UHGV virus genome: UHGV-0118085
From: a virus
Length of the DNA: 17,017 nucleotides
Direction: 5' to 3' (one strand)
A program made the position numbers and the translations under genes. The notes under the pieces were generated by a model, which saw only the letters and a list, made by a program, of their open reading frames with translations, was not told the origin of the DNA and ran no database searches. This document shows, one piece after another, positions 1-17,017 of the stretch (positions are counted from its first letter, which is position 1; each line of letters begins with the position of its first letter).

Positions 1-44
1 GGAAGCAAATCATCTGCAATGCATTAAGCAGCAGGCAAATTGAG

Positions 45-2956: not shown

Positions 2957-4039
2957 ATGGCGATTCCAGCAAAATTGCGGCTGTTCACCTGCTTCGTGAA
3001 CAGCGTAAACAATATCGGCAAAGTGACATCTGTGACGCTGCCAAAACTGACCCGGAAAACGGAAGACTACCAGGGCGGCGGCATGATTGGTTCCGTTGCC
3101 GTCGATCTCGGACTGGATATCTGGCGATTCTGGGAACCGATCAAAGCCTTCTTTGCGGGCTTCTTTGCCGGTGTGATGCAGGCTCTTACACCGTTCCGGG
3201 ATGCCTTTGCCGGGCTGGCCCCCGTCTTTGATGTGATCTCGAATGCCGTTTCTGAGTTATGGCAGTGGTTCAGCAACCTGCTTTCACCAATGACGACCAG
3301 CAAAGAGATGCTTGATAAATGCGCAAGCGCTGGGGAGACATTCGGCAAAGTGTTTGGCCTGGCAATTCAGGGGTTAATGTTGCCTCTGACCGGGCTAGCC
3401 AAAATGGTTGGATGGATACTTGAAAAGCTGGGACTGATTCCATCCGGGATTGAAACAGCAAAAGCAAAAGCTGAGAAGGTACAGAAGGAACTAACACCGG
3501 CAGGATTGACTATGCTGCAGGACAAAGTTGGCGCGCTCACTGGTGATGTAAAAGCAGTAACCGCACCACCTATCGCACCGCCATCACCGGTGATTGCCGC
3601 AGATACAGGAACACAACGACGCTTACAGAAAATTGCCGACAACACCGGCGGGATGCTGGATGAAACCAAAAAACGGATCGGCCCTGGCGATATAGTGTTT
3701 AAAAACCTGCCCCGCGCATTAGCCGTCCACGGCACATGGCAGGAAGCACAATCAACCCAAGGCGCTAACCTGACCCAACTGAGCGGGCGACCGGTTATCG
3801 CAGCGGCATCAGCCCCGATTAAACCAGCGGCTGAAATACAGGCTATTGGCGGGCAATCCAGGAAACAAATCAGCAGATCGGCGCAAAACACCACGCCTGA
3901 TGAAATGCATATTCACATTCATATGCACGGCAATTTCAGCAACGACGCCCGCGACATTGCGCGCATGACCGCCGACGCAGTACAGGCAGAATTTAATAAG
4001 CGCTTCCGCTCACGTAGCAGCTTCAGTGACAATGAATAG
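2957..4039 (+). CDS. Chimeric ORF: tail-tube (FII-like) N-terminus fused in frame to a tape-measure (gpT-like) C-terminal portion; probably a deletion remnant
   Basis: The first ~54 residues (MAIPAKLRLF...VTLPKLTRK...VDLGLD) resemble the tail-tube N-terminus. The remainder is an Ala/Gly-rich, partly hydrophobic sequence typical of a tape-measure C-terminus. 360 aa is far too long for a tube protein (about 170 aa) and far too short for a tape measure (about 800 aa). Confidence 0.6.
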   Translation: MAIPAKLRLFTCFVNSVNNIGKVTSVTLPKLTRKTEDYQGGGMIGSVAVDLGLDIWRFWEPIKAFFAGFFAGVMQALTPFRDAFAGLAPVFDVISNAVSELWQWFSNLLSPMTTSKEMLDKCASAGETFGKVFGLAIQGLMLPLTGLAKMVGWILEKLGLIPSGIETAKAKAEKVQKELTPAGLTMLQDKVGALTGDVKAVTAPPIAPPSPVIAADTGTQRRLQKIADNTGGMLDETKKRIGPGDIVFKNLPRALAVHGTWQEAQSTQGANLTQLSGRPVIAAASAPIKPAAEIQAIGGQSRKQISRSAQNTTPDEMHIHIHMHGNFSNDARDIARMTADAVQAEFNKRFRSRSSFSDNE

Positions 4040-4051
4040 GAGAGCAAAACA

Positions 4052-5749
4052 ATGATGATGGTTTACGGAATGTTCGTCTTTGAGTTAAAAACCGTTCCCC
4101 ACCAACAGTTGCAGCAATCAAAGACCTGGAGGCATGTGAAGAACGAACGCATAAACCGATCGGCAAAATGGCAATACATTGGCGCGGGTGACGATCAAAT
4201 CACCCTATGCCAACTCACCATGAAGCCGACAAAGACGGGCGGCGATCTGAAGGAAATTGACGCGCTCACGCGCCAGGTGAAGAAACTGGCAGAAGGACAA
4301 CCGGCGCAGCCATTCAAGAAAGCGCGCGCGAGCAAAAAGAAAAACCACTTCACCGAAGCGCAGATCGCCGCGCTGCGGGAAAAAATTCAGGACTCCTTGG
4401 CCTGGCATCAGCAAGGATGGTTTGAACAGCGCCAGCAGCGCAACCGCATGATCCTGAAAAGTCGCCAGATTGGCGCTACCTGGTACTTTGCCCGTGAAGC
4501 GCTTTTACAGGCGCTGCGGGATGACGTTAAGCACGGGTATCAGCGCAACCAGATTTTTCTGTCAGCGTCACGTCGCCAGGCGCACCAGTTCCGGGGCTTC
4601 ATCCAGAAGGTTGCAGAAGAAGTCGACGTAGAGCTAAAAGGCGGTGACAAAATTTTGTTATCTAACGGGGCCGAATTGCATTTTCTCGGCACGTCTGCTG
4701 CTACCGCGCAGAGCTACACCGGCAACCTGTTTTTCGACGAATTTTTCTGGGTAGGTAACTTTGCCAACCTCCGCAAGGTGGCTGGCGCAATGGCAACCCT
4801 GAAAGGACTGACGCGCACTTATTTTTCAACGCCATCGAGCGAAAGCCATGAAGCCTACCCCTTCTGGACGGGTAAGCGCTGGAATGAGAAGCGGGCAAAA
4901 TCCAGCCGAGTAGAGTTCGACACAAGCTGGAAGACGCTCAACAGCGGCCTGTTGTGCCCGGATAAAACCTGGCGGCAGATTGTCACCCTGAAGGACGTGA
5001 TCGACCACGGCTGGGAGTTCACCGACCTGGAAGAAATCCAGGACGAAAATACCCCGGACGAATACACCAACCTGTACATGTGTGAGTTCGTCAAAGAAGG
5101 TGAATCCGTTTTCTCACTTAATCAGCTACTGACGTGCGGCGCGGACGGCTACGACGACTGGCAGGACTGGAAACCCTACGCCCCCCGCCCGCTTGGCGAT
5201 CGTGAAGTCTGGATAGGCTACGACGCCAACGGCGGCAGTGGCAACGGTGACAGCGGCGCTGTTTCCGTGGTTACCCCTCCCCTGGTCAGTGGCGGCAAGT
5301 TCCGCACGATAGAGACGCGCCAGCTACGCGGGATGGAGTTTGAAGAACAGGCCAAAGTGATCGAAGACCTGACCATTAAATACAACGTCCGGCACATCGC
5401 AATTGACGGTACCGGCATTGGTGAAGCGGTCTGGCAACTGGTCAAGAAATTCTTCCCGGCGGCGGTCTGTTTCATCATGTCGCTGTCATCAAAGCGCACT
5501 CTGGTACTCAAAATGCAGCAGGTGATCCGCGCGGGCCGCTGGGAGTATGACCGTAGTGAACAGGCGTTAGTGTCAGCATTCAACGCCGTCAGGAAAATCA
5601 CCACCGCCGGTGGACAAATTACCTATGACACCGATCGCGCGCGCGGCGTCAGTCATGGCGACTTAGCCTGGGCAAATATGCTGGCAATCATCAACGAGCC
5701 ACTTGGACGCGAGAACGGCAGCGGCGGCGGTTCCGTAAGAGAGTTTTAA
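4052..5749 (+). CDS. Chimeric ORF: gpU-like tail-protein N-terminus (about 65 aa) fused in frame to a nearly complete large terminase (gpP-like, ATPase plus nuclease)
   Basis: The N-terminus MMMVYGMFVFELKTVPHQQLQ...WRH...ITL...TGG matches the gpU family pattern. The rest carries terminase large-subunit features (KSRQIGATWYFAREAL, QIFLSAS, GNLFFDEFFWV, YFSTPSS...YPFWTG, C-terminal IAIDGTGIG). An RBS (GGAG) precedes the ATG, and the stop overlaps the Q start (TAATG). Confidence 0.65.
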   Translation: MMMVYGMFVFELKTVPHQQLQQSKTWRHVKNERINRSAKWQYIGAGDDQITLCQLTMKPTKTGGDLKEIDALTRQVKKLAEGQPAQPFKKARASKKKNHFTEAQIAALREKIQDSLAWHQQGWFEQRQQRNRMILKSRQIGATWYFAREALLQALRDDVKHGYQRNQIFLSASRRQAHQFRGFIQKVAEEVDVELKGGDKILLSNGAELHFLGTSAATAQSYTGNLFFDEFFWVGNFANLRKVAGAMATLKGLTRTYFSTPSSESHEAYPFWTGKRWNEKRAKSSRVEFDTSWKTLNSGLLCPDKTWRQIVTLKDVIDHGWEFTDLEEIQDENTPDEYTNLYMCEFVKEGESVFSLNQLLTCGADGYDDWQDWKPYAPRPLGDREVWIGYDANGGSGNGDSGAVSVVTPPLVSGGKFRTIETRQLRGMEFEEQAKVIEDLTIKYNVRHIAIDGTGIGEAVWQLVKKFFPAAVCFIMSLSSKRTLVLKMQQVIRAGRWEYDRSEQALVSAFNAVRKITTAGGQITYDTDRARGVSHGDLAWANMLAIINEPLGRENGSGGGSVREF

Positions 5750-6810: not shown

Positions 6811-6984
6811 CCAACCCGCCGCCATCCCGGCGGCGCTCTCCGCATCACATCAATACACGGCACGCCAGCGCCATTCTAAGCGCCCCATAATCTAAACACG
6901 CCATTACCCGCACACAACACACAGAACGCAGCAGCGCGCCAGAATTGCGCCAATTTCCCTATATTTGAGGTATACCCCTTCCCA

Positions 6985-7030
6985 CCCCGCCGCGCGGGCT
7001 TTCCCCCCGTCACCTGCGCGCGGCAAACAC
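6985..7030. other. Putative cos (cohesive-end / packaging) region
   Basis: A GC-rich palindromic stretch containing gctttcccc, which resembles the reverse complement of the P2 cos end as I recall it. It lies about 190 bp past the portal stop, where cos is expected in this orientation. The match is partial. Confidence 0.3.
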
Positions 7031-7152
7031 GCGTGTTTTCGTGCATTGGCAGAACCACATCCAGCAACCATAGACCCTGCCATTATCGTCTTAAAACTCG
7101 ACTGATTTAGTTGTGCATTTTTGTGCACTTTCTTGCATGTCATTACACGTAT

Positions 7153-9924
7153 TTAATCATCTAGCAACGGATCTTGTGCCTTACTGGAATTAACTTGCTC
7201 CAAATGCTTAATACAATCTTCACTTGAAATAAAATAGACCTTAGGTTTTTTCCTTAGCTCATATGTCAAAAATACTGTCACTTCCATTTTTACATACGTT
7301 TTCAGATTAGTTTCATTTATATCTAATCCTCTTGAAGTCAACAAACTATCAGATGGAGAAGTGAAAGATGCTTTTAATATATCGTCTCCCTCAAGAGAAA
7401 AACAACAAACATCATCAAGATGAATATAATAAAAACCATCCTTATTAAATTTTACATCATTTTGTACTCTATATCTCATTCCTCTGTAGAATCTGACGTT
7501 ATGATCAAAATCATTCTCTATTGCGCTTATAGTTATAAACTTCAAACCTTCAGGGAGTTGGTTAAGATTCTTAATAATAACAACATCCATATCATGAAGA
7601 TCACTAATCAAATGAGAAGTGATGAGTTTGAAAACATTTGCCGCATATAAAGATGGAGATTGGGAATATATTTCTCCATTAATGGGCTTAATAATCTGTC
7701 GCTTCGTAATTAGATATTCAAAAACAAACTTGTCACTAATATTTTCACAACTACACTCTAAAGTAGCAAACTCACGAAATGTTTTTATGAAATCATTTTT
7801 TAATCCATCTTCATATAGCTTCATGAGTTCTTCATCATAAGGAGTATTGATCACATCATTGACTTGAATATCAAGAATCTTAGAGTTTATTTCTTCAAAT
7901 CCAGAAAGTAGATTATGCTTACGCTCATCAAAACTATTAAGCTCATCATTATGAGCTTCTAATTCGAGTAAATCCATAACTTCTCTAAAAAAATCTGATT
8001 GATATATAGACATGACATCATCTATAAAATGAGATGAAAGATTATTTACCTTTACAAGGTTCTCTAAATCATCAATATATATTAGACTTAAACCATTATT
8101 GTACGAACGACCTTTGAATAAAATCAATGCTAAAGCAAAAGCCATATAATGTTGTGATCTTATAGAAATAGCACCTGAGCCAGTTGCATCCCTTATTTCA
8201 AACTCATCTATATCATCTAAAAAAACAGATTTTAACGAAAAAAGAATATCATAAACTTCTGATATGAAGTAAATCTCCGTTAAGTAATGAGGATTCAACC
8301 ATTGGCTCAGCAAGTTTGCCAGATCTAATATTTCCTCATTCTTATTTTTTAGTTCACATAATCGAATGCCATCATTTTTTCCTAGTAGGTGCTCCAACCG
8401 CATTCCAATACAAGATATCACTATTTTATTCGCATCAATCAGCAAGGATTGTCTAGTATTCAATTCAGATGATGAAATGCCAATATAAATGTTATTATTC
8501 CCAGTAAGAAATGTAGTGTTTATTTTAAAAGCATCATAATGTCTATTGACAAGGTTTTTAATACTCGACTTAAGATAAATCTCAAGAAACTTATCACTTT
8601 CAGAATACATAACTCTTTCTTCTGTGAAACTCCTAGACTCAATCAAAAAACCATAATATGAAGATGGATCATAAATTATTCTCGGAAGAGAAAGCATAGA
8701 ACTAAAGACGATTAGAGCTTTTTCAATATCGGTATATAGAAGAAGCCATAGCAACTTATTATAAAACGCGAATAGTATTGTTTGTGGTGTATTTTTTGAG
8801 GATGGGGATTCATATATGAATCGTTCCAAACTTAAAAACACTCCTGCACTTTGAGATTTTGAAATTATTAAATATATTACTTCCACACAAAAATCAAGTT
8901 GACTACTTAAACTCCCCTGCAAGGTGTTTAATGTATTCCTTACAACCATCAACTCTATTTCATCATAAAAATAGAAATTTTCGCTTTCATTAAGATAATT
9001 GAATGATTTACTAATGAGCGTTTTAATTTTATTAAGAGACTCATGATTTTGATTCAAATTAATGCCTTCATCAGAAAAAATAATGGCATCTCTATCAATC
9101 ATAGGCTTGTGAAATGTAGGTGAGATATATAATACAACTTTTGAAGTGCCGAAAATTTTTGTTAGTTCAGCATTCAATTTATTTAGATTATTCTTATTAA
9201 GGCCAACTATTACTTTCTTATCCGTAGAATATGTATTTTTAATTTTTACTCCATTTAGAGGCATGAACTCCATTTCATATTTAATAACTGAATTCTGTTG
9301 GTTTTTTATAAAATTACGAAATTCAGCAAGTAGATGCTTGCTATTATTATTACTATCTAAAACAAATGAACTAACTTCCGTTACTTTATTCAATAAAATT
9401 GCATCAATCAACTCTTTTTTCTCTGTTATATAATATAAACTCCTGAACATGGATATGTATCGGAATATAAAAAAAACAGAGCATGATACTGACAAGGCAT
9501 ATTGAATAACCCCCCCACCGATTACCAAGAAAAAGATTCCCACAAATAATCCGCAAATAGCATTAAGGCTGAATGAATAAAATTTATATTCTCTCAATAC
9601 CAATTGCCTTGTTACATTAACAAAATACTTATTTGATGCCTCTGTAACCTGTTGAACAAACATTCCCATAAATGCAATTGATAATGCAGCGATTGTTCCG
9701 TGGATTGATAATATAGTTCCCCAAGAGCTAGGAATCCAATTTAACTCTGCTTTATTAACGTATAACGGAGAAATAAAGAGCCAGCGATAGTCAGAATCTC
9801 CTCCTGCCCCTACAAAAAATAAAACCGAACCTAAAAGCAAAATTAAACCCATCTTAATAAAAGACTCAATTGCTTTTTTACCTGTGAATTCAGCCACCTG
9901 CTTTGATATTTTACCACTATCCAT
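7153..9924 (-). CDS. Large AT-rich cargo protein of unknown function with about four N-terminal transmembrane helices; candidate anti-phage defence or exclusion protein
   Basis: Uninterrupted 923-codon ORF. Sampled 60-nt lines inside it give 19/60 and 14/60 G+C, against 37/60 in a sampled line of gene A. Hydrophobic segments fall at residues about 25-41, 66-90 and 118-165 (nt about 9430..9852). No Walker A, HUH, DPPY or other motif recognised in the soluble part. It occupies the P2 tin/old position between A and cos/Q. Confidence 0.8.
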   Translation of the reverse strand: MDSGKISKQVAEFTGKKAIESFIKMGLILLLGSVLFFVGAGGDSDYRWLFISPLYVNKAELNWIPSSWGTILSIHGTIAALSIAFMGMFVQQVTEASNKYFVNVTRQLVLREYKFYSFSLNAICGLFVGIFFLVIGGGVIQYALSVSCSVFFIFRYISMFRSLYYITEKKELIDAILLNKVTEVSSFVLDSNNNSKHLLAEFRNFIKNQQNSVIKYEMEFMPLNGVKIKNTYSTDKKVIVGLNKNNLNKLNAELTKIFGTSKVVLYISPTFHKPMIDRDAIIFSDEGINLNQNHESLNKIKTLISKSFNYLNESENFYFYDEIELMVVRNTLNTLQGSLSSQLDFCVEVIYLIISKSQSAGVFLSLERFIYESPSSKNTPQTILFAFYNKLLWLLLYTDIEKALIVFSSMLSLPRIIYDPSSYYGFLIESRSFTEERVMYSESDKFLEIYLKSSIKNLVNRHYDAFKINTTFLTGNNNIYIGISSSELNTRQSLLIDANKIVISCIGMRLEHLLGKNDGIRLCELKNKNEEILDLANLLSQWLNPHYLTEIYFISEVYDILFSLKSVFLDDIDEFEIRDATGSGAISIRSQHYMAFALALILFKGRSYNNGLSLIYIDDLENLVKVNNLSSHFIDDVMSIYQSDFFREVMDLLELEAHNDELNSFDERKHNLLSGFEEINSKILDIQVNDVINTPYDEELMKLYEDGLKNDFIKTFREFATLECSCENISDKFVFEYLITKRQIIKPINGEIYSQSPSLYAANVFKLITSHLISDLHDMDVVIIKNLNQLPEGLKFITISAIENDFDHNVRFYRGMRYRVQNDVKFNKDGFYYIHLDDVCCFSLEGDDILKASFTSPSDSLLTSRGLDINETNLKTYVKMEVTVFLTYELRKKPKVYFISSEDCIKHLEQVNSSKAQDPLLDD

Positions 9925-10104
9925 AAGAGCACCACTTTAATATGTAAATTACAAATCAAGAGTTATAATTAACACACACAACGAAACCGTCTCTATTCTC
10001 ATAAAATACGCCAACGCATATTAGATATAGACCTCTAAGTTTCGGTTCTGATTGAATTGATAAAAAAATCATTTCACTATATGCTTTGAGGGAAGTAAAA
10101 GTAT

Positions 10105-12594
10105 TCATCTTTCAGGGGCAATCCTTTTCAACATTCTAGTGTAATATCCAATTGGATCATGCCTAATGTTACCACAGTCAATATTATGTCTTATTTGCAT
10201 ACGTTGCCACAACGCCCTGATTTTAGAGTCCATGCTGGAGTCTGATCGACGTCGCACTTCTCCATTGTTGTTGGCATAAACAACACTTTCATCAATACGC
10301 AAATGTTCGCCGCGTAACAACAACTTTATTTGGCCTGTACTCAGCTTCATGCCGATAGATCTGGCATAGTCATCCATTACAGCTATGCGTGCTTCAGGTA
10401 TTGGCACAGTGACATGGTCAGCAGGCATACATTTTTCCTGTTGGCGCAACTCATGAGCTACCTTCAGATAGATCTCTGCTCTAGCCTGCTCAATTTCACC
10501 ACAATCAAATGCCGTAATAGCATTAGCAAGCGCTTCAAATTCATCAGCAGGTGATTTTTGCCGTTTCGATTTGTAGTTTCTTAAACCTTCATTAAGACGC
10601 ATTTTCTGTTCGCGGGTCATTTGACCAATTTCATACTGTTCGGGTTCGTCCGGTTGTGAATTTTCACATACTGATTTTGTGTGTTTTTTGTACTCAGTAC
10701 AGTTATTGACACGAGTCCAAGAGGGCGCGGGCGCGCCCTTAAGGTCAAAACCTCGACCAGCGTCGTCGTCTGCTTTTGGCTTCATTTTGACAATACGATA
10801 AGAATGGAGACGGGTTTCAACCGGAGGAATAGTCGATGCTGGCATGACTACGCCTTTAATGACTCTCTGAAACTCGCCGTAACTGCTCGGTTCATCCCGG
10901 TACTGATACCATGCGCGCAACACAAGCCTATTCCGTGCCACGAACGGGCCACCCTGCAAGGTAATGTAGTCCTGCCAGTTCCCCGCATGTGCGGCGCGAT
11001 GTAACTCACCGAAAACCGGACTGATACGATCTGCCATTTCCTGATTCTTCAGGCGGCGCAACTCGCGCCAGACAGACACCGGCGCACCACCCAAAAACTG
11101 AAACTGACGAATGCCCCAGCATGAAGCCCAGGCGGTAGCGTGTTTTGCTGTTTCCTTCAGTGGACGTCCGCTTTCGTCGTCGCTTTCACCATCCAGCGCG
11201 TAGCCATCAATATTTTTAGATATGTACTTAACAACATAGCCAGTAGCACTCCCCAAAGCCGGATCTATTGGCTTAAGCTCAAAGCGCGGTTGCTTGCCAG
11301 TCTTGCCGGTTAGCTCGTCTGCATCCTCACGTGTGGCGTAGTCTTCCATCACTTCCAACAACTCGCCGGTATGTTCCGGGGCAGTGAACAGAAGGCCATG
11401 CCAATGCGGAGTAGCATCATGGTGAGATTCAGCAACGCGAAGGCCAAAAACAGGAATCTCACGGCGCGCAAGCTCCGCGCGGATCAGCTGCCAGACGTGA
11501 TTAAGGTAGTTCTGTGTTTTGCGTGGGCTTGCTCCGTTCCATTTATGATTACGATGCCCGAATACTGTAAAAGCATGATATTTAGACGGTGCGGTCAACG
11601 TGAAGAAACTACCGGCAAAACCGCTTTCTGTTGCCACTTTCTCAAAGCCACCAATGCGCGTCATCAACTCAACGCGGCGCTTTTCAGGGTTAGAAATACT
11701 TTTATCAATCTGCTCTATCAGCGAAATGCGCTCGCCAGTTACCTGATCTTCAAGTTCAAGACGGCTCATAATTTCGCGACTACGCTTACGGCGGGAATCC
11801 CACTGTGTAACGTGGTGTTTGCTGCAATACGGTGAAACATCGCGGCGCACATCACCATAAGCAATGTGCAAATGCTCACGCCAGCGGCGGGCGTACTTGC
11901 GCAGAAGGCGTGACCAAAAGCGATCGTGCGTGGTTTTTTGTATTGCCGCCGCCGCTTCATCAAGCGCCATCCGGCGCTTCTTCGCCCAAGGTGCCACCAA
12001 CCTGAAATACGCAATTAGTCTAGAGCCTTCACGCACCATGCGTTTGCCGTACTCAGCATCACTAAACATGCTCGCGCCTTCACTCACTTCAGCCAAAACG
12101 GCATTGGCATAAATGGCAATGTCCTGTGCCAACAAATCAATATCTTCATCGGTACTATCAGCCAGATTATTGAAGCGGTGCGCTAGCTCACGCAGATTTT
12201 CAAACGTGTGAAATAGTGGGTTTAGTTCAGAGAAAATGATCCAATCATTGTCTTCTGGTACCGCGTATTGATTCGTGACGTTACGGACGTGTGGAAGCTC
12301 GCGCTTAACGATATCGCGTAGCTTCAGTTTTGCGATATGACGTCCTTTATCCTCGTGAACGGTATTTATGTAAAAAGCAATGCGACGGCGAATGAAAGAA
12401 GGTAACGGCTTAAGGGTATCTTCTACCCATGCGAAAAACTCCTGCTCTTGACCCAATTCATATAGGTCAACAGCGGGAGTCTTATCGACGGAAATGGCCT
12501 GTTTGGGCTCATTCCAGGCGTAAGCATACCGGGCTGGCTCAACCGAGCCTCCCGGCATGGAGGTCATGCTATGGGTGCGGCGAACTGAAGTCAT
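10105..12594 (-). CDS. A: Rolling-circle replication initiator endonuclease (P2 gpA family)
   Basis: HUH motif PHWHGLLF (nt 11398..11406) and the twin-tyrosine motif YVVKYISKN (nt 11224..11238) with the two Tyr three residues apart, as in P2 A and phiX174 A. The track start at 12597 is a TTG; the ATG at 12594 is preceded by AAGG, so I prefer it. Confidence 0.9.
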   Translation of the reverse strand: MTSVRRTHSMTSMPGGSVEPARYAYAWNEPKQAISVDKTPAVDLYELGQEQEFFAWVEDTLKPLPSFIRRRIAFYINTVHEDKGRHIAKLKLRDIVKRELPHVRNVTNQYAVPEDNDWIIFSELNPLFHTFENLRELAHRFNNLADSTDEDIDLLAQDIAIYANAVLAEVSEGASMFSDAEYGKRMVREGSRLIAYFRLVAPWAKKRRMALDEAAAAIQKTTHDRFWSRLLRKYARRWREHLHIAYGDVRRDVSPYCSKHHVTQWDSRRKRSREIMSRLELEDQVTGERISLIEQIDKSISNPEKRRVELMTRIGGFEKVATESGFAGSFFTLTAPSKYHAFTVFGHRNHKWNGASPRKTQNYLNHVWQLIRAELARREIPVFGLRVAESHHDATPHWHGLLFTAPEHTGELLEVMEDYATREDADELTGKTGKQPRFELKPIDPALGSATGYVVKYISKNIDGYALDGESDDESGRPLKETAKHATAWASCWGIRQFQFLGGAPVSVWRELRRLKNQEMADRISPVFGELHRAAHAGNWQDYITLQGGPFVARNRLVLRAWYQYRDEPSSYGEFQRVIKGVVMPASTIPPVETRLHSYRIVKMKPKADDDAGRGFDLKGAPAPSWTRVNNCTEYKKHTKSVCENSQPDEPEQYEIGQMTREQKMRLNEGLRNYKSKRQKSPADEFEALANAITAFDCGEIEQARAEIYLKVAHELRQQEKCMPADHVTVPIPEARIAVMDDYARSIGMKLSTGQIKLLLRGEHLRIDESVVYANNNGEVRRRSDSSMDSKIRALWQRMQIRHNIDCGNIRHDPIGYYTRMLKRIAPER

Positions 12595-12603
12595 CAATCC
12601 GCC

Positions 12604-12777
12604 TTAGATGGAAACAGTGTCGCCGGGCTGTATTGCTCTGGCGTCACGTTCTGAATAGGTGATCAGATCTGTATTGCTGTAACCCCCCTCACCCAGAACC
12701 TCAACACGAGTTATCCAGTAATTACGGCGCGGGAGCACATCCAGCACCTTTGTCACAACGACCTCAACGGGATTCAT
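12604..12777 (-). CDS. Hypothetical small protein (57 aa), translationally coupled to the methyltransferase
   Basis: Hand-translated as MNPVEVVVTKVLDVLPRRNYWITRVEVLGEGGYSNTDLITYSERDARAIQPGDTVSI. Its ATG (12777..12775) overlaps the methyltransferase stop codon (12779..12777) by one nucleotide (TGATG), with AGGAGG upstream. It is below the ORF-track length cutoff. Confidence 0.45.
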   Translation of the reverse strand: MNPVEVVVTKVLDVLPRRNYWITRVEVLGEGGYSNTDLITYSERDARAIQPGDTVSI

Positions 12778-13760
12778 CAGAACACCTCCTGATCATCAAA
12801 AGCACCAGAGGCAACCATTTCTGAATAGGTCGCATCAGCCATCACAGCACCGCAATCAGGACAACCGCCGCCAGTACGCCCACAACAACCACAAACGCGT
12901 AGAAAGCCGATCACCTCGCCAGCCAAGTTGCGAGATTTGGCCCCTACAGATCGGCGGATTTCGAATGAATTAAGGGTGAACGGGTAGTAAATTTTGCGGG
13001 TTTCCGGGGTATCGCTACCGGAAAAAACAGACAGGCATCCTTCGTTGTTATGAGCGGTAATCAATGACTCAACCAGGTCACGGTGATCATCGACAGTGAA
13101 GGGTTTACCGTACGCGGTAAAATCAGCCGTTTTACTCGCTGGCAGGTAAGGCGGATCACAGTAAATTACTGTGCGCTCAAATATGCGACTAGCAACAGGG
13201 ATGGTGTAACGGAAATCAGCGCAAAGAAACTGAGCACCTTTCTCATATGCTCGTTTTGCAAAGTGCTGGATCTCTGCAACAGGGAAAATTGGCTTGCGGC
13301 GACGACCAAATGGAACGTTAAATTCATTCTTCCCATTCACTCGGTATAAACCGTTATAGCAATGACGGTTTAGATAAAGGAATAATGCTGCAAACTTTAC
13401 AAGTTCACTCTGATAATAAACCTTTCCATCAGAAGTTTTTTTATTATGCTGGGGGAAATCACGATTAAAATCATTAAATTCATTGCGGCATTTATAATAT
13501 GCCTCTTCATTATTACCGCCATCAAATAGAGTAGCAGCGACATCTAGCAACGATTTAGTATTGTTCTTCAATATTGAATAGAAGTTCATAAGCGCTGCGT
13601 TGCTATCACACAGAATATAGGTTTTATAGTCAGTGTTCAGAAAGACGCTACCACTACCTACAAAAGGCTCAACGAGACATTCACCCTTTGGCAAAGCCTC
13701 CAGTACATGAGGCATCGCGCGAGACTTGCCGCCCGCCCAGATCAGAGGGGAGTTAACCAT
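12777..13760 (-). CDS. Dam-type N6-adenine DNA methyltransferase with a Cys-rich C-terminal tail
   Basis: N-terminal SPLIWAGGK...EPFVGSGSV (AdoMet-binding) and catalytic DPPY (nt 13146..13157). I start it at the ATG at 13760 (MVNSP...), preceded by AAGGAG, rather than the track start at 13832. The C-terminus carries CGCCGRTGGGCPDCG (nt about 12852..12893). Confidence 0.85.
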   Translation of the reverse strand: MVNSPLIWAGGKSRAMPHVLEALPKGECLVEPFVGSGSVFLNTDYKTYILCDSNAALMNFYSILKNNTKSLLDVAATLFDGGNNEEAYYKCRNEFNDFNRDFPQHNKKTSDGKVYYQSELVKFAALFLYLNRHCYNGLYRVNGKNEFNVPFGRRRKPIFPVAEIQHFAKRAYEKGAQFLCADFRYTIPVASRIFERTVIYCDPPYLPASKTADFTAYGKPFTVDDHRDLVESLITAHNNEGCLSVFSGSDTPETRKIYYPFTLNSFEIRRSVGAKSRNLAGEVIGFLRVCGCCGRTGGGCPDCGAVMADATYSEMVASGAFDDQEVF

Positions 13761-13920
13761 TTTTTTGCTCCTTGATTTCTGCGGCCTTTTCTCTGTTGTA
13801 GATCCAGTCTTCCAGGCTGCGATAAATTTCATTGGTGGACAGCTTTTCTTTTTTCAGTAAGGTTAATTTGATACGTAACAACCCAAGCAGGTGCGCGCGT
13901 TCATTTATTTGAATTGTCAT
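13753..13920 (-). CDS. Hypothetical small protein (55 aa) overlapping the methyltransferase start
   Basis: Hand-translated as MTIQINERAHLLGLLRIKLTLLKKEKLSTNEIYRSLEDWIYNREKAAEIKEQKNG. GGAGG lies upstream of its ATG, and its 3' end overlaps the methyltransferase ATG by 8 nt. Confidence 0.45.
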   Translation of the reverse strand: MTIQINERAHLLGLLRIKLTLLKKEKLSTNEIYRSLEDWIYNREKAAEIKEQKNG

Positions 13921-14992: not shown

Positions 14993-15265
14993 TTAAAGGC
15001 CCATCCAGAGCAACCAGGCATCACGCTGTTCAACCGGGCGGTTATAGAACGCCTCACGCACCCCGCGATTGAACTCAGGAACAAAGACCAGCTTTTCTCC
15101 CGCGCGCGCTTTTGGCTTCGACGGATCACGAAACTCAATAACCGGCAGCTTATTTTTTTCAATCATGGTTTGTACGGCTGTGCGTGGTTTACCTAGCAAT
15201 TCCGCGAACTTATCAGGATGTACCGCATCAAGCGGGTACTGAATAACGTAATCAGCAGCTTCCAT
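14993..15265 (-). CDS. cox: Cox-like excisionase / early repressor of the lysogenic promoter
   Basis: 90-aa ORF divergent from the C repressor gene, resembling P2 Cox (FAELLGKPRTAVQTMIEKNKLPVIEF...). It is the first gene of the minus-strand early operon leading to A. Confidence 0.75.
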   Translation of the reverse strand: MEAADYVIQYPLDAVHPDKFAELLGKPRTAVQTMIEKNKLPVIEFRDPSKPKARAGEKLVFVPEFNRGVREAFYNRPVEQRDAWLLWMGL

Positions 15266-15426
15266 AAACTATCTCCATTCTCATTTGGTTACATGCTAAC
15301 CTTGTAAGATCCAGCGGCTTTAAAACGGCTCAGGATGGTTCCTGAGCGGCTGGACTCACGCCCAAAAAGGTTCTGAGTCAATGACCTTTTCGGGTGAGTA
15401 TAGTCATTAAGTCAGGACCAAATCAA
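15266..15426. promoter_or_regulatory. Divergent early/lysogenic promoter-operator region between cox and C
   Basis: 161-bp intergenic region between divergent cox and C. It contains a perfect palindrome gctcagga-tggt-tcctgagc (15328..15347), near-direct repeats ggttcctgag / ggttctgag (15338..15347 and 15369..15377), and a -10-like TATAGT (15399..15404) upstream of C. Confidence 0.55.
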
Positions 15427-15720
15427 ATGAATCTTGCTCAAAAATTGCGAGCGATCAGGAAGGCAGAAGGGCTAACACAGGCTAAATTCTGTGAAATCAG
15501 CGGGATAGCGTTAGGAACGCTGAAGAATTACGAAGGAGGGCATCAAGAGCCAGGTATACAAGTGATCATGCAGGTAACTAACACGGCGCATTTTGAAAAA
15601 TACACCCTGTGGTTAATGACCGATAAGACAGCACCAGAAGCCGGGCAGATTTCCCCGGCCGTCGCACACTCTGGGCAAGACGAAACAACCTCGTCACCAT
15701 CAGGCCGCAAAACTGGCTAA
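15427..15720 (+). CDS. C: Immunity repressor C (P2 C family, helix-turn-helix)
   Basis: The C-terminal half (FEKYTLWLMTDKTAPEAGQISPAVAHSGQDETTSSPSGRKTG) closely resembles P2 C. I start it at the ATG at 15427 (MNLAQKL...), preceded by AGGA, giving 97 aa; the track ORF begins at a GTG at 15394. Confidence 0.85.
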   Translation: MNLAQKLRAIRKAEGLTQAKFCEISGIALGTLKNYEGGHQEPGIQVIMQVTNTAHFEKYTLWLMTDKTAPEAGQISPAVAHSGQDETTSSPSGRKTG

Positions 15721-15862: not shown

Positions 15863-16843
15863 ATGACTATCAAAAGACTCGATGATGGGCGTTATGAAGT
15901 GGATATCAGACCGCGCGGGCGTGAAGGACGTCGCATCCGCCGAAAATTTGAGAGAAAGGCTGAAGCTATTGCCTTTGAGCGCTACACATTAGCGAACGCT
16001 AACCAGAAGGAATGGGCGGGCCAGAGAACAGATCGCAGATCTCTATCTGAATTACTGGATGCCTGGTGGAAGTATCACGGTCAAAACCATGAACACGGTG
16101 AGAAGGAATTTAACCACCTCACGAAGACGATCGGCGGCATCGGTGACATACCCGTTAGCCGCGTGAGCAAACGGCTCCTGATGGACTACCGTTCTATGCG
16201 ACTTCGTGACGGTATCAAGGCATCAACAATTAACCGTGATATGTACCGTTTTTCAGGCATGTTCACCAAGTTGATTCAGTTGGAAGAGTTTTCCGGCACA
16301 CATCCAGTGCATGGACTACCGCCACTGGCAGAAGAAAACCCAGAAATGACATTTCTGGCAAAGGAAGAGATCAGCAGCTTACTAAATGCCTTAACCGGCG
16401 ATGCAAGATTGATTGCCCTTCTGGGCGTCAGTACCGGTGCGCGATGGTCTGAGTTGGCAACGTTAAAGCCTTCTCAGATCGTCAATTGCCGCGTGACTTT
16501 CCTGAAGACCAAAAACGGGAAAAAGCGCACTGTTCCAATTTCTGCTGAACTAGAAAAACTGATCAAGAGGGAGGCAAGCGCGAAACTGTTTAAAGTGGAC
16601 TATGAAAAATTTTGTCTGATCCTGAAGGCGGTAAAACCAGATATACCCCCGAACCAGGCAACACATATTCTGCGTCATACCTTCGCAAGTCATTTTATGA
16701 TGAATGGGGGTAACATTATCGCGCTACAGCAGATATTAGGACATGCCAGCATCCAGCAAACGATGGTTTACGCGCATCTGTCGCCAGACTATCTGCAAAA
16801 TGCTGTCTCACTAAATCCCCTTGCCGGTGGCGTATCGCTTTAA
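15863..16843 (+). CDS. int: Tyrosine integrase (P2 Int family)
   Basis: 326-aa ORF with the catalytic signature HILRHTFASH ... MVYAHL (H-x-x-R and the nucleophilic Tyr). It lies downstream of C on the same strand and next to the right att repeat, as in P2. Confidence 0.9.
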   Translation: MTIKRLDDGRYEVDIRPRGREGRRIRRKFERKAEAIAFERYTLANANQKEWAGQRTDRRSLSELLDAWWKYHGQNHEHGEKEFNHLTKTIGGIGDIPVSRVSKRLLMDYRSMRLRDGIKASTINRDMYRFSGMFTKLIQLEEFSGTHPVHGLPPLAEENPEMTFLAKEEISSLLNALTGDARLIALLGVSTGARWSELATLKPSQIVNCRVTFLKTKNGKKRTVPISAELEKLIKREASAKLFKVDYEKFCLILKAVKPDIPPNQATHILRHTFASHFMMNGGNIIALQQILGHASIQQTMVYAHLSPDYLQNAVSLNPLAGGVSL

Positions 16844-16962: not shown

Positions 16963-17007
16963 GATAAAAAAAACCCCCACATCATGTGGGGGAAGACAGG
17001 GATGGTG
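16963..17007. repeat. Attachment-site direct repeat, int-proximal copy
   Basis: Matches 45..89 at 44 of 45 positions and includes the same A-run plus ccccaca/tgtgggg hairpin. Confidence 0.8.
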
Positions 17008-17017
17008 TCTATGGCAA

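Follow-up and report, generated by a model that had tools for sequence, protein, structure and literature searches.

The whole stretch of DNA that was analysed, hereafter the window, is 17,017 nt long (UHGV virus genome UHGV-0118085), and its interior is a P2-like prophage of 16.9 kb that lies between the two copies of a direct repeat. The left part of this prophage has ogr and D, both minus-strand genes, a sheath gene and a fusion of a tube N terminus with a tape-measure C terminus. The middle part carries a fusion of a GpU N terminus with the large terminase, a portal gene and then an ORF of 923 aa, and the right part carries replication gene A, a Dam-type methyltransferase gene, small early genes, cox, a C repressor gene and a gene for a 326-aa integrase. 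The features on which the argument turns are given below, with attL and attR named according to the reading that we come to favour.

1-44, no strand: fieF-side host DNA with the same sequence as the fieF-cpxQ spacer of K-12; fieF comes next in L251, L253 and ES1
45-89, minus: attL copy of the core (repeat D1), A9C4 allele (a56); orphan CpxQ nt 17-58 plus 3 nt
48-73, minus: attL hairpin, terminator-like by folding; stem-loop 57-73 of 7 bp, U9 tail 48-56
141-158, plus: two tandem GTCCACA motifs 11 bp apart, putative P2-type Int arm-binding sites of the ogr-side arm
162-186, minus: ogr's own hairpin and T-run (GCCCCGCAGATGCGGGGCTTTTTTT, minus strand), read from the sequence, upstream of the orphan core
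192-440, minus: ogr, late-gene activator, reading toward attL (Pfam Ogr_Delta, E = 4.5e-19)
14993-15265, minus: cox, excisionase/switch protein (Pfam Phage_Cox, E = 1.2e-22)
15394-15720, plus: C-type immunity repressor with HTH (Pfam HTH_3), placed as gene C in WΦ and L-413C
15863-16843, plus: tyrosine integrase, reading toward attR, 84% identical to WΦ Int over 326/326 aa
16863-16880, plus: two tandem GTCCACA motifs 11 bp apart, putative Int arm-binding sites of the int-side arm
16963-17007, minus: attR copy of the core (repeat D1), with the same sequence as the attP core in WΦ and L-413C
16966-16992, minus: CpxQ/cpxP intrinsic terminator; stem-loop 16974-16992 of 8 bp with a 3-nt loop, U8 16966-16973
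16966-17017, minus: CpxQ sRNA from nt 58 to nt 7; its 5' 6 nt and cpxP lie past the window edge
16993-17007, no strand: segment AAGACAGGGATGGTG, the probable exchange zone (or else the adjacent G-run), invariant across Enterobacterales
17008-17017, minus: host DNA on the cpxP side, CpxQ nt 16-7 by comparison with K-12

Comparison with the 29.6-kb ES1 prophage revealed two internal deletions in the element, marked by the fusion ORFs at 2957-4039 and 4052-5749. The first runs from the tube C terminus into the tape-measure gene, with its junction at about 3118, and the second, with its junction at about 4207, extends from gpU up to where the large terminase begins and takes out the remaining tail (fibre, baseplate), lysis and head genes. 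Both deletions left in-frame fusion ORFs with a 2-3 nt overlap at the junction, and int, cox, A, ogr, D, the sheath gene and the portal gene were retained. Since head, tail and lysis genes have been deleted, the element cannot make virions. Copies of this 16.9-kb deleted element with 99.99-100% identity were found in one E. coli assembly and in many contigs from metagenomes, each around 17 kb long, of which 20 were read, and in the assembly L252 it stands in tandem with a second P2-like prophage on its fieF side. We speculate that an element of this kind, about half a P2 genome with a potential helper adjacent, may be mobilisable like a satellite. The P2 cos 19-mer had no match in the window at up to 3 mismatches, and a G-rich motif similar to P2 cos lies in 6811-7152. 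The methyltransferase gene of the early region (12777-13832, minus strand) encodes a D12-class N6-adenine DNA methyltransferase whose best PADLOC matches are 'orphan methyltransferase' models; ES1 has a homologue at the same early-region place and a second methylase at the cargo hotspot.

The 923-aa ORF (7153-9924, minus strand) lies between the portal gene and replication gene A, at a position that we take to be the tin/old cargo hotspot of P2. It has a GC content of about 30%, lies in a low-GC block spanning approximately 7138-10433, and replaces a segment that in ES1 holds a hypothetical protein and a methylase. Searches of Pfam, PADLOC, NCBIfam and PDB sequences gave no match, and a Foldseek comparison of its AlphaFold model (pLDDT 79.5) with the PDB gave none at E <= 0.001. 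The only families matched were PHROGs 18005 and 10073, both of unknown function, and only 15 homologues were found (Citrobacter, Lelliottia, Enterobacter, Kosakonia). The N terminus looks as if it forms about 4 transmembrane helices. Because of its place at the hotspot, the ORF is a candidate, and possibly a new, anti-phage or accessory gene.

The direct repeat at the window ends (45-89 and 16963-17007) is 45 nt long with 44/45 positions identical, the sole mismatch being a at 56 versus c at 16974, and under uniform base composition about 1.6e-17 pairs of this kind would arise by chance in 17 kb. Both copies score as terminator-like on the minus strand, which confirmed the duplicated core with a terminator-like hairpin described in an earlier sequence-only reading of this DNA. 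That reading gave the hairpin 7 bp; this holds for the left copy (73-57, a 7-bp stem with a T9 tail), and the stem of the right copy (16992-16974) has 8 bp, 6 of them GC, with a 3-nt loop and a T8 tail. The RNA fold of the attR version has an energy of -17.4 kcal/mol (z = -2.5). It had also been proposed that the site is not a tRNA, in agreement with an ARAGORN scan that found no tRNA or tmRNA in the window; a core overlapping such a gene at its 3' end was thus rejected. An inverted repeat, ATGGTGAT-N6-ATCACCAT, was also observed at 82-103, partly in the right end of the attL core and partly in the phage arm on the ogr side. It forms a strong alternative hairpin for the orphan transcript (-23.3 kcal/mol, z = -3.9), is partly kept in ES1 and is missing from the arms of WΦ and L-413C; it could be a protein-binding site or be without function.

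The flanks of the repeat identify the host locus. Each end of the window had a match in all 5,426 complete E. coli genomes. The entire window recurs at 99.99% identity in one E. coli assembly (GCA_047770995.1, L251) and at 100% in a metagenome contig (L253), and in both the sequence continues beyond it into cpxP and fieF. In the lysogens M217 and ES1, cpxP lies on the minus strand to the right of the int-side repeat, followed by cpxR and cpxA, and fieF and pfkA lie on the left. The host gene beyond the right edge is cpxP, with fieF on the other side. The sequence-only reading had placed a host gene just past the right edge on the minus strand, which is where cpxP was seen in L251, L253, ES1 and M217. 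It had also held that this gene could not be identified from the window, a point that has to be corrected, as 52 of the 58 nt of CpxQ lie within it.

The empty site was searched for with the core and the flanks, as that reading had suggested. In K-12 MG1655, a single core copy joins flanks identical to window positions 1-44 and 17008-17017. An attB rebuilt from 1-44, the core and 17008-17017 was found at 100% identity in 3,743 E. coli genomes with the C5 allele of the right copy and in 260 with the A9C4 allele of the left copy, so that flanks and core form one contiguous site in thousands of genomes. The A9C4 attB was a single, unoccupied site in 12 of the 12 records listed. The core occurs at a median of one place per E. 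coli genome and the unoccupied examples listed were single-copy; it is therefore not part of a dispersed repeat.

The core itself belongs to a small RNA gene. The K-12 annotation places a 58-nt ncRNA, cpxQ (b4716), with its start 9 nt past the cpxP stop codon, and 37 nt separate that stop codon from the hairpin downstream. The core covers CpxQ nt 17-58 and extends 3 nt past them. Positions 16966-17017, read on the minus strand, agree with nt 7-58 of K-12 CpxQ at 51 of 52 positions, and the sole difference is in the hairpin loop. This sequence thus has identity to the annotated cpxQ, lies in the cpxP 3' UTR and is on the cpxP strand; in L251 and L253, cpxP is directly upstream on the same strand. 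[quoted passage not shown] CpxQ is an Hfq-dependent sRNA that RNase E cleaves out of the cpxP 3' UTR, and in the Cpx response to envelope stress it acts as the non-coding arm (PMC9438474, PMC4817254). The seed for nhaB and cfa is formed by the 5' end of CpxQ (PMC6755755); this seed lies outside the duplicated core.

No Rfam family reached its gathering score in the window. The only match at a relaxed E-value was Hrs1 (RF02628), at 37-41 bits against a gathering score of 56.4 and on the strand opposite cpxP/cpxQ (16966-17017, plus). Hrs1 is an Erwinia amylovora sRNA that lies between cpxP and fieF and is co-oriented with both (PMC4070566), and it is therefore the CpxQ orthologue; CpxQ lacks an Rfam annotation here because E. 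coli scores below the Hrs1 gathering score. The Rfam Hrs1 model was observed to have an A-run at its start and a hairpin after it, as though the reverse complement had been used to build it.

The same core is carried by free phages. In the genomes of WΦ (NC_005056) and L-413C (AY251033), an identical 45-nt core lies between int and ogr, and a circular 32-kb replicon with the order int-core-ogr also exists. This replicon (L257, NZ_JBQJRQ010000002.1) is a 32,330-bp circular E. coli 'plasmid unnamed3' with int, the core, a hypothetical gene, ogr and D, and is most likely an excised P2-like phage genome in its attP form that was labelled as a plasmid; the core was also seen in two other plasmid records. 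Among the prophage insertion sites given in the paper on the E. coli W genome is 'cpxP-fieF: Wphi1 (P2)' (PMC3032704), and WΦ and L-413C share the same MG1655 site and the same core (PMC3448106). The arm-binding consensus of P2-type Int is tgTGGaCa (PMC3448106), and the GTCCACA pairs in both arms of the window match it; this motif has 6 matches in the window versus 1.6 expected. The integrase matches tyrosine-recombinase families, with PF00589 and Int_N recorded for the same gene in L251. Thus, the core is found at both prophage ends, once in unoccupied chromosomes and in attP, with a WΦ-related Int beside the att site, arm repeats on both sides, and Cox and a C repressor. The core is the attachment site of WΦ-group P2-like phages, which has already been described. 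A literature search that did not include Liu 1999 and Karlsson 2006 (WΦ attB) found no publication linking CpxQ with the cpxP-fieF att site, and the additions made here, namely the identification of CpxQ, the side of the exchange as read from natural polymorphism, and the figures for occupancy and breadth, are modest.

A flanking direct repeat might also be the target duplication of a transposon or the end of a dispersed repeat family, and the bare presence of such a repeat agrees with this. However, each unoccupied genome has one copy, the identical sequence stands inside free phage genomes between int and ogr, and a tyrosine integrase, Cox and arm-site repeats are present. The target duplications of transposons are also far shorter than the 45 nt of this repeat, and we give this explanation practically no weight. 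We consider it very probable that the two copies are the attL and attR of a WΦ-group P2-like (Peduoviridae) prophage at fieF-cpxP, with a core from the CpxQ 3' part and a terminator of phage origin at attR.

The assignment of the two copies to host and phage was addressed with natural alleles. The hairpin loop carries a G in K-12-type hosts (CACAGCATG) and a T in 7/7 attP-type cores, including those of WΦ and L-413C. The alleles at attL and attR of E. coli lysogens were sampled through BLAST identity bands. The M217 lysogen has G at attL and T at attR. A synthetic attL(G) junction found perfect full-length matches in M217 and E2 (sampling at even steps of about 84 records), and for a synthetic attR(G) junction the best match was 99.0%, with no perfect one among 820 E. 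coli junctions; the attR junctions sampled had T in 6/6, including E. coli W. In IMG/VR, G was found at attL in four contigs with two different phage arms and at 0/35 attR-type junctions. In addition, the stem variants CCCCTCCA/TGGAGGGG (ES1) and CCCCCTCA/TGAGGGGG (Citrobacter) stand as complete complementary hairpins at one junction, and no chimeric stem was seen among the stem variants examined. ES1 alone was set aside as a guide to the orientation of the crossover, since its variant hairpin might have come from host or phage; the K-12-type G allele resolved this.

Because G occurs at attL and not at attR and the variant hairpins are intact, the exchange would lie on the cpxP side of the hairpin. 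We infer from these natural alleles that it falls within (GGGG)AAGACAGGGATGGTG; since the allele search pattern fixed the 19 nt right of the hairpin, polymorphism narrows the exchange zone to this extent and no further. An exchange on this side would make the attR terminator phage DNA and the attL hairpin the host original, and the same geometry would make c16974 the phage allele and a56 the host allele, which we regard as most likely. The segregation of alleles thus supports the earlier proposal that the terminator was regenerated, here by phage DNA at attR, and makes plausible, with the caveats given below, its suggestion that the a/c mismatch distinguishes a host-type (a56) from a phage-type (c16974) copy.

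The allele at 56 is not exclusive to hosts. A9C4 was found at attL beside WΦ-type arms with an E. coli flank (L044, L068, L081 and L093), and also in phage-side junctions, one attP-type (L034) and others attR-type (L062, L074, L111 and L135); in L252, it stands at the tandem junction abutting the ogr arm of this element. A purely host status of A9C4 was therefore rejected, and the assignment of a56 to the host rests on the geometry of the exchange. These occurrences, in one attP-type and several attR-type junctions and, as if travelling with the element, between the int arm of the second prophage and the ogr arm of the element in L252, speak for an exchange within the A-run on the fieF side of 56/16974, in which case the attR hairpin would be the host's and the attL hairpin with a56 the phage's. 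Against this, the G loop is present in unoccupied sites and at attL with two phage arms, in no attP core examined, and is absent from attR (820 junctions at top rank, six sampled, 35 from IMG/VR). Moreover, WΦ-type phages that are C5 when free show A9C4 at attL beside the E. coli flank, and the lineage of the second prophage carries A9C4 by itself (L034, L062, L135). We judge a fieF-side exchange to be very unlikely.

It might also be that the a/c difference arose by mutation after integration or by an assembly error and is silent on host or phage origin. The change lies at a homopolymer boundary (A8C5 versus A9C4), where errors and recurrent mutations arise easily, and A9C4 occurs in several unrelated contexts. 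However, the same a/c pair was found in three independent assemblies, L251 (NCBI), L252 and L253 (ENA), and 260 E. coli genomes carry A9C4 as a standing host allele, at a single, unoccupied site in 12 of 12 listed. There is a small but appreciable chance that this explanation is correct, and site-specific entry with a host-derived a56 remains the reading that we prefer.

Under site-specific entry, a tyrosine integrase would have recombined the prophage into the fieF-cpxP spacer of E. coli, at an attB core made of the 3' 42 nt of CpxQ, including the terminator common to cpxP, and 3 nt downstream, and the attP of the phage would have brought its own copy of this core. With the strand exchange on the cpxP-proximal side of the hairpin, probably within (GGGG)AAGACAGGGATGGTG, the cpxP/CpxQ transcript would end in a phage-supplied hairpin and U-tail at attR, and the original host hairpin would be left as an orphan at attL, between ogr and fieF and pointing toward fieF. 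Both hairpins point toward fieF, and both presumably terminate transcription in vivo. The attL copy and the ogr hairpin (186-162), which the terminator scan lists on the plus strand, would then stand between late phage transcription and fieF and may serve as insulation.

The closest known systems are WΦ (Peduovirus Wphi) and L-413C, which share with the window element the core, its placement between int and ogr, the arm repeats and the chromosomal site, with Int at 84% identity. In these phages, identity to attB is 2 nt longer (47 nt) with an ogr-side arm starting TC, whereas the ogr-side arm in the window diverges after GGTG; the element also differs in its arms, immunity region and cargo, and has lost head, tail and lysis genes. 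P2 at locH, the 3' end of the cyaR sRNA gene, is alike in that Int targets the terminator end of an sRNA gene and a replacement copy is carried, but it has another core sequence and another Int specificity. The cyaR sRNA is transcribed independently, whereas CpxQ is cut from an mRNA 3' UTR, and its hairpin therefore also terminates a protein-coding gene. Integrases of tRNA and tmRNA sites, such as those of 186 at tRNA-Ile, HP1 at tRNA-Leu, and Fels-2 and SopEΦ at ssrA, likewise enter the 3' part of a structured RNA gene with a long core that restores the gene (PMC3448106), but the target here is an sRNA and terminator. Compared with ordinary CpxQ (Hrs1 in Erwinia), to which 16966-17017 on the minus strand corresponds in its place directly downstream of cpxP, the gene in the lysogen would have a phage-derived 3' hairpin and U-tail, and a second, 5'-truncated copy lies at attL.

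The site is frequently occupied. Full phage-host junctions were found 786 times for attL and 820 times for attR in the 5,426 complete E. coli genomes, or about 15%, and a separate junction count in these genomes gave 788; these approximately 800 independent junctions have clean boundaries. Beyond E. coli, at least 120 species-representative genomes of Enterobacterales contain the 19-mer GGGGAAGACAGGGATGGTG, with Pantoea, Erwinia, Serratia, Edwardsiella, Klebsiella and Salmonella among the matches listed. In nearly all the loci listed it lies immediately downstream of cpxP and on the same strand as that gene, phage-side junctions and loci cut by a contig end being the exceptions among these matches. 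The next 16 nt (TCTATGGCAAGGAAAA) are kept in about 110 of 119 loci among the matches listed, and the hairpin varies by compensatory changes. Int-bearing elements occur at the site in about 9 species among the at least 120 listed, and the motif was found in more than 118 IMG/VR contigs. That the exchange segment is so extremely conserved across Enterobacterales accounts for the use of this site by related integrases in many genera. In Rosenbergiella gaditana (L140) and in L226, two CpxQ-core copies were observed beside cpxP, 2.6 kb and 1.25 kb apart, respectively, one with an int-side and the other with an ogr-side phage arm; these look like prophage remnants shrunk nearly to their att sites.

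The sequence-only reading is thus correct in its observation and interpretation and incomplete, having missed the CpxQ body, the identity of the gene and the WΦ site. For this host, the attL version of the hairpin has a 7-bp stem and U9 versus an 8-bp stem and U8 in the attR version, and lysogeny would appear to have changed its CpxQ terminator from the former to the latter. By the same reasoning, approximately one in seven complete E. coli genomes would have a CpxQ 3' hairpin of phage origin. A bolder idea, which we consider unlikely, is that WΦ-group lysogeny amounts to an 'RNA-level conversion', in which the Hfq-binding terminator module of CpxQ is swapped for the phage allele and a second module is placed past ogr. 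In ES1, the stem differs by compensatory changes. If the idea were true, phage late promoters could drive the second CpxQ 3' module as an ogr-3'UTR/CpxQ chimera, and CpxQ dosage, Hfq occupancy or target regulation could be altered in about 15% of E. coli strains.

The main value of the finding lies in the annotation of prophage boundaries at cpxP-fieF: since the core is both the WΦ site and part of the CpxQ gene, these boundaries should be drawn so that CpxQ stays. Prophages have been listed at 'cyaR RNA', 'rybB ncRNA' and 'ssrA tmRNA' alongside cpxP-fieF (PMC3032704), the first two as P2-type sites in Table 2, and the CpxQ site is a further case of the known preference of P2-family phages for the terminator ends of sRNA genes (cyaR, rybB, ssrA), here that of an sRNA from an mRNA 3' UTR.
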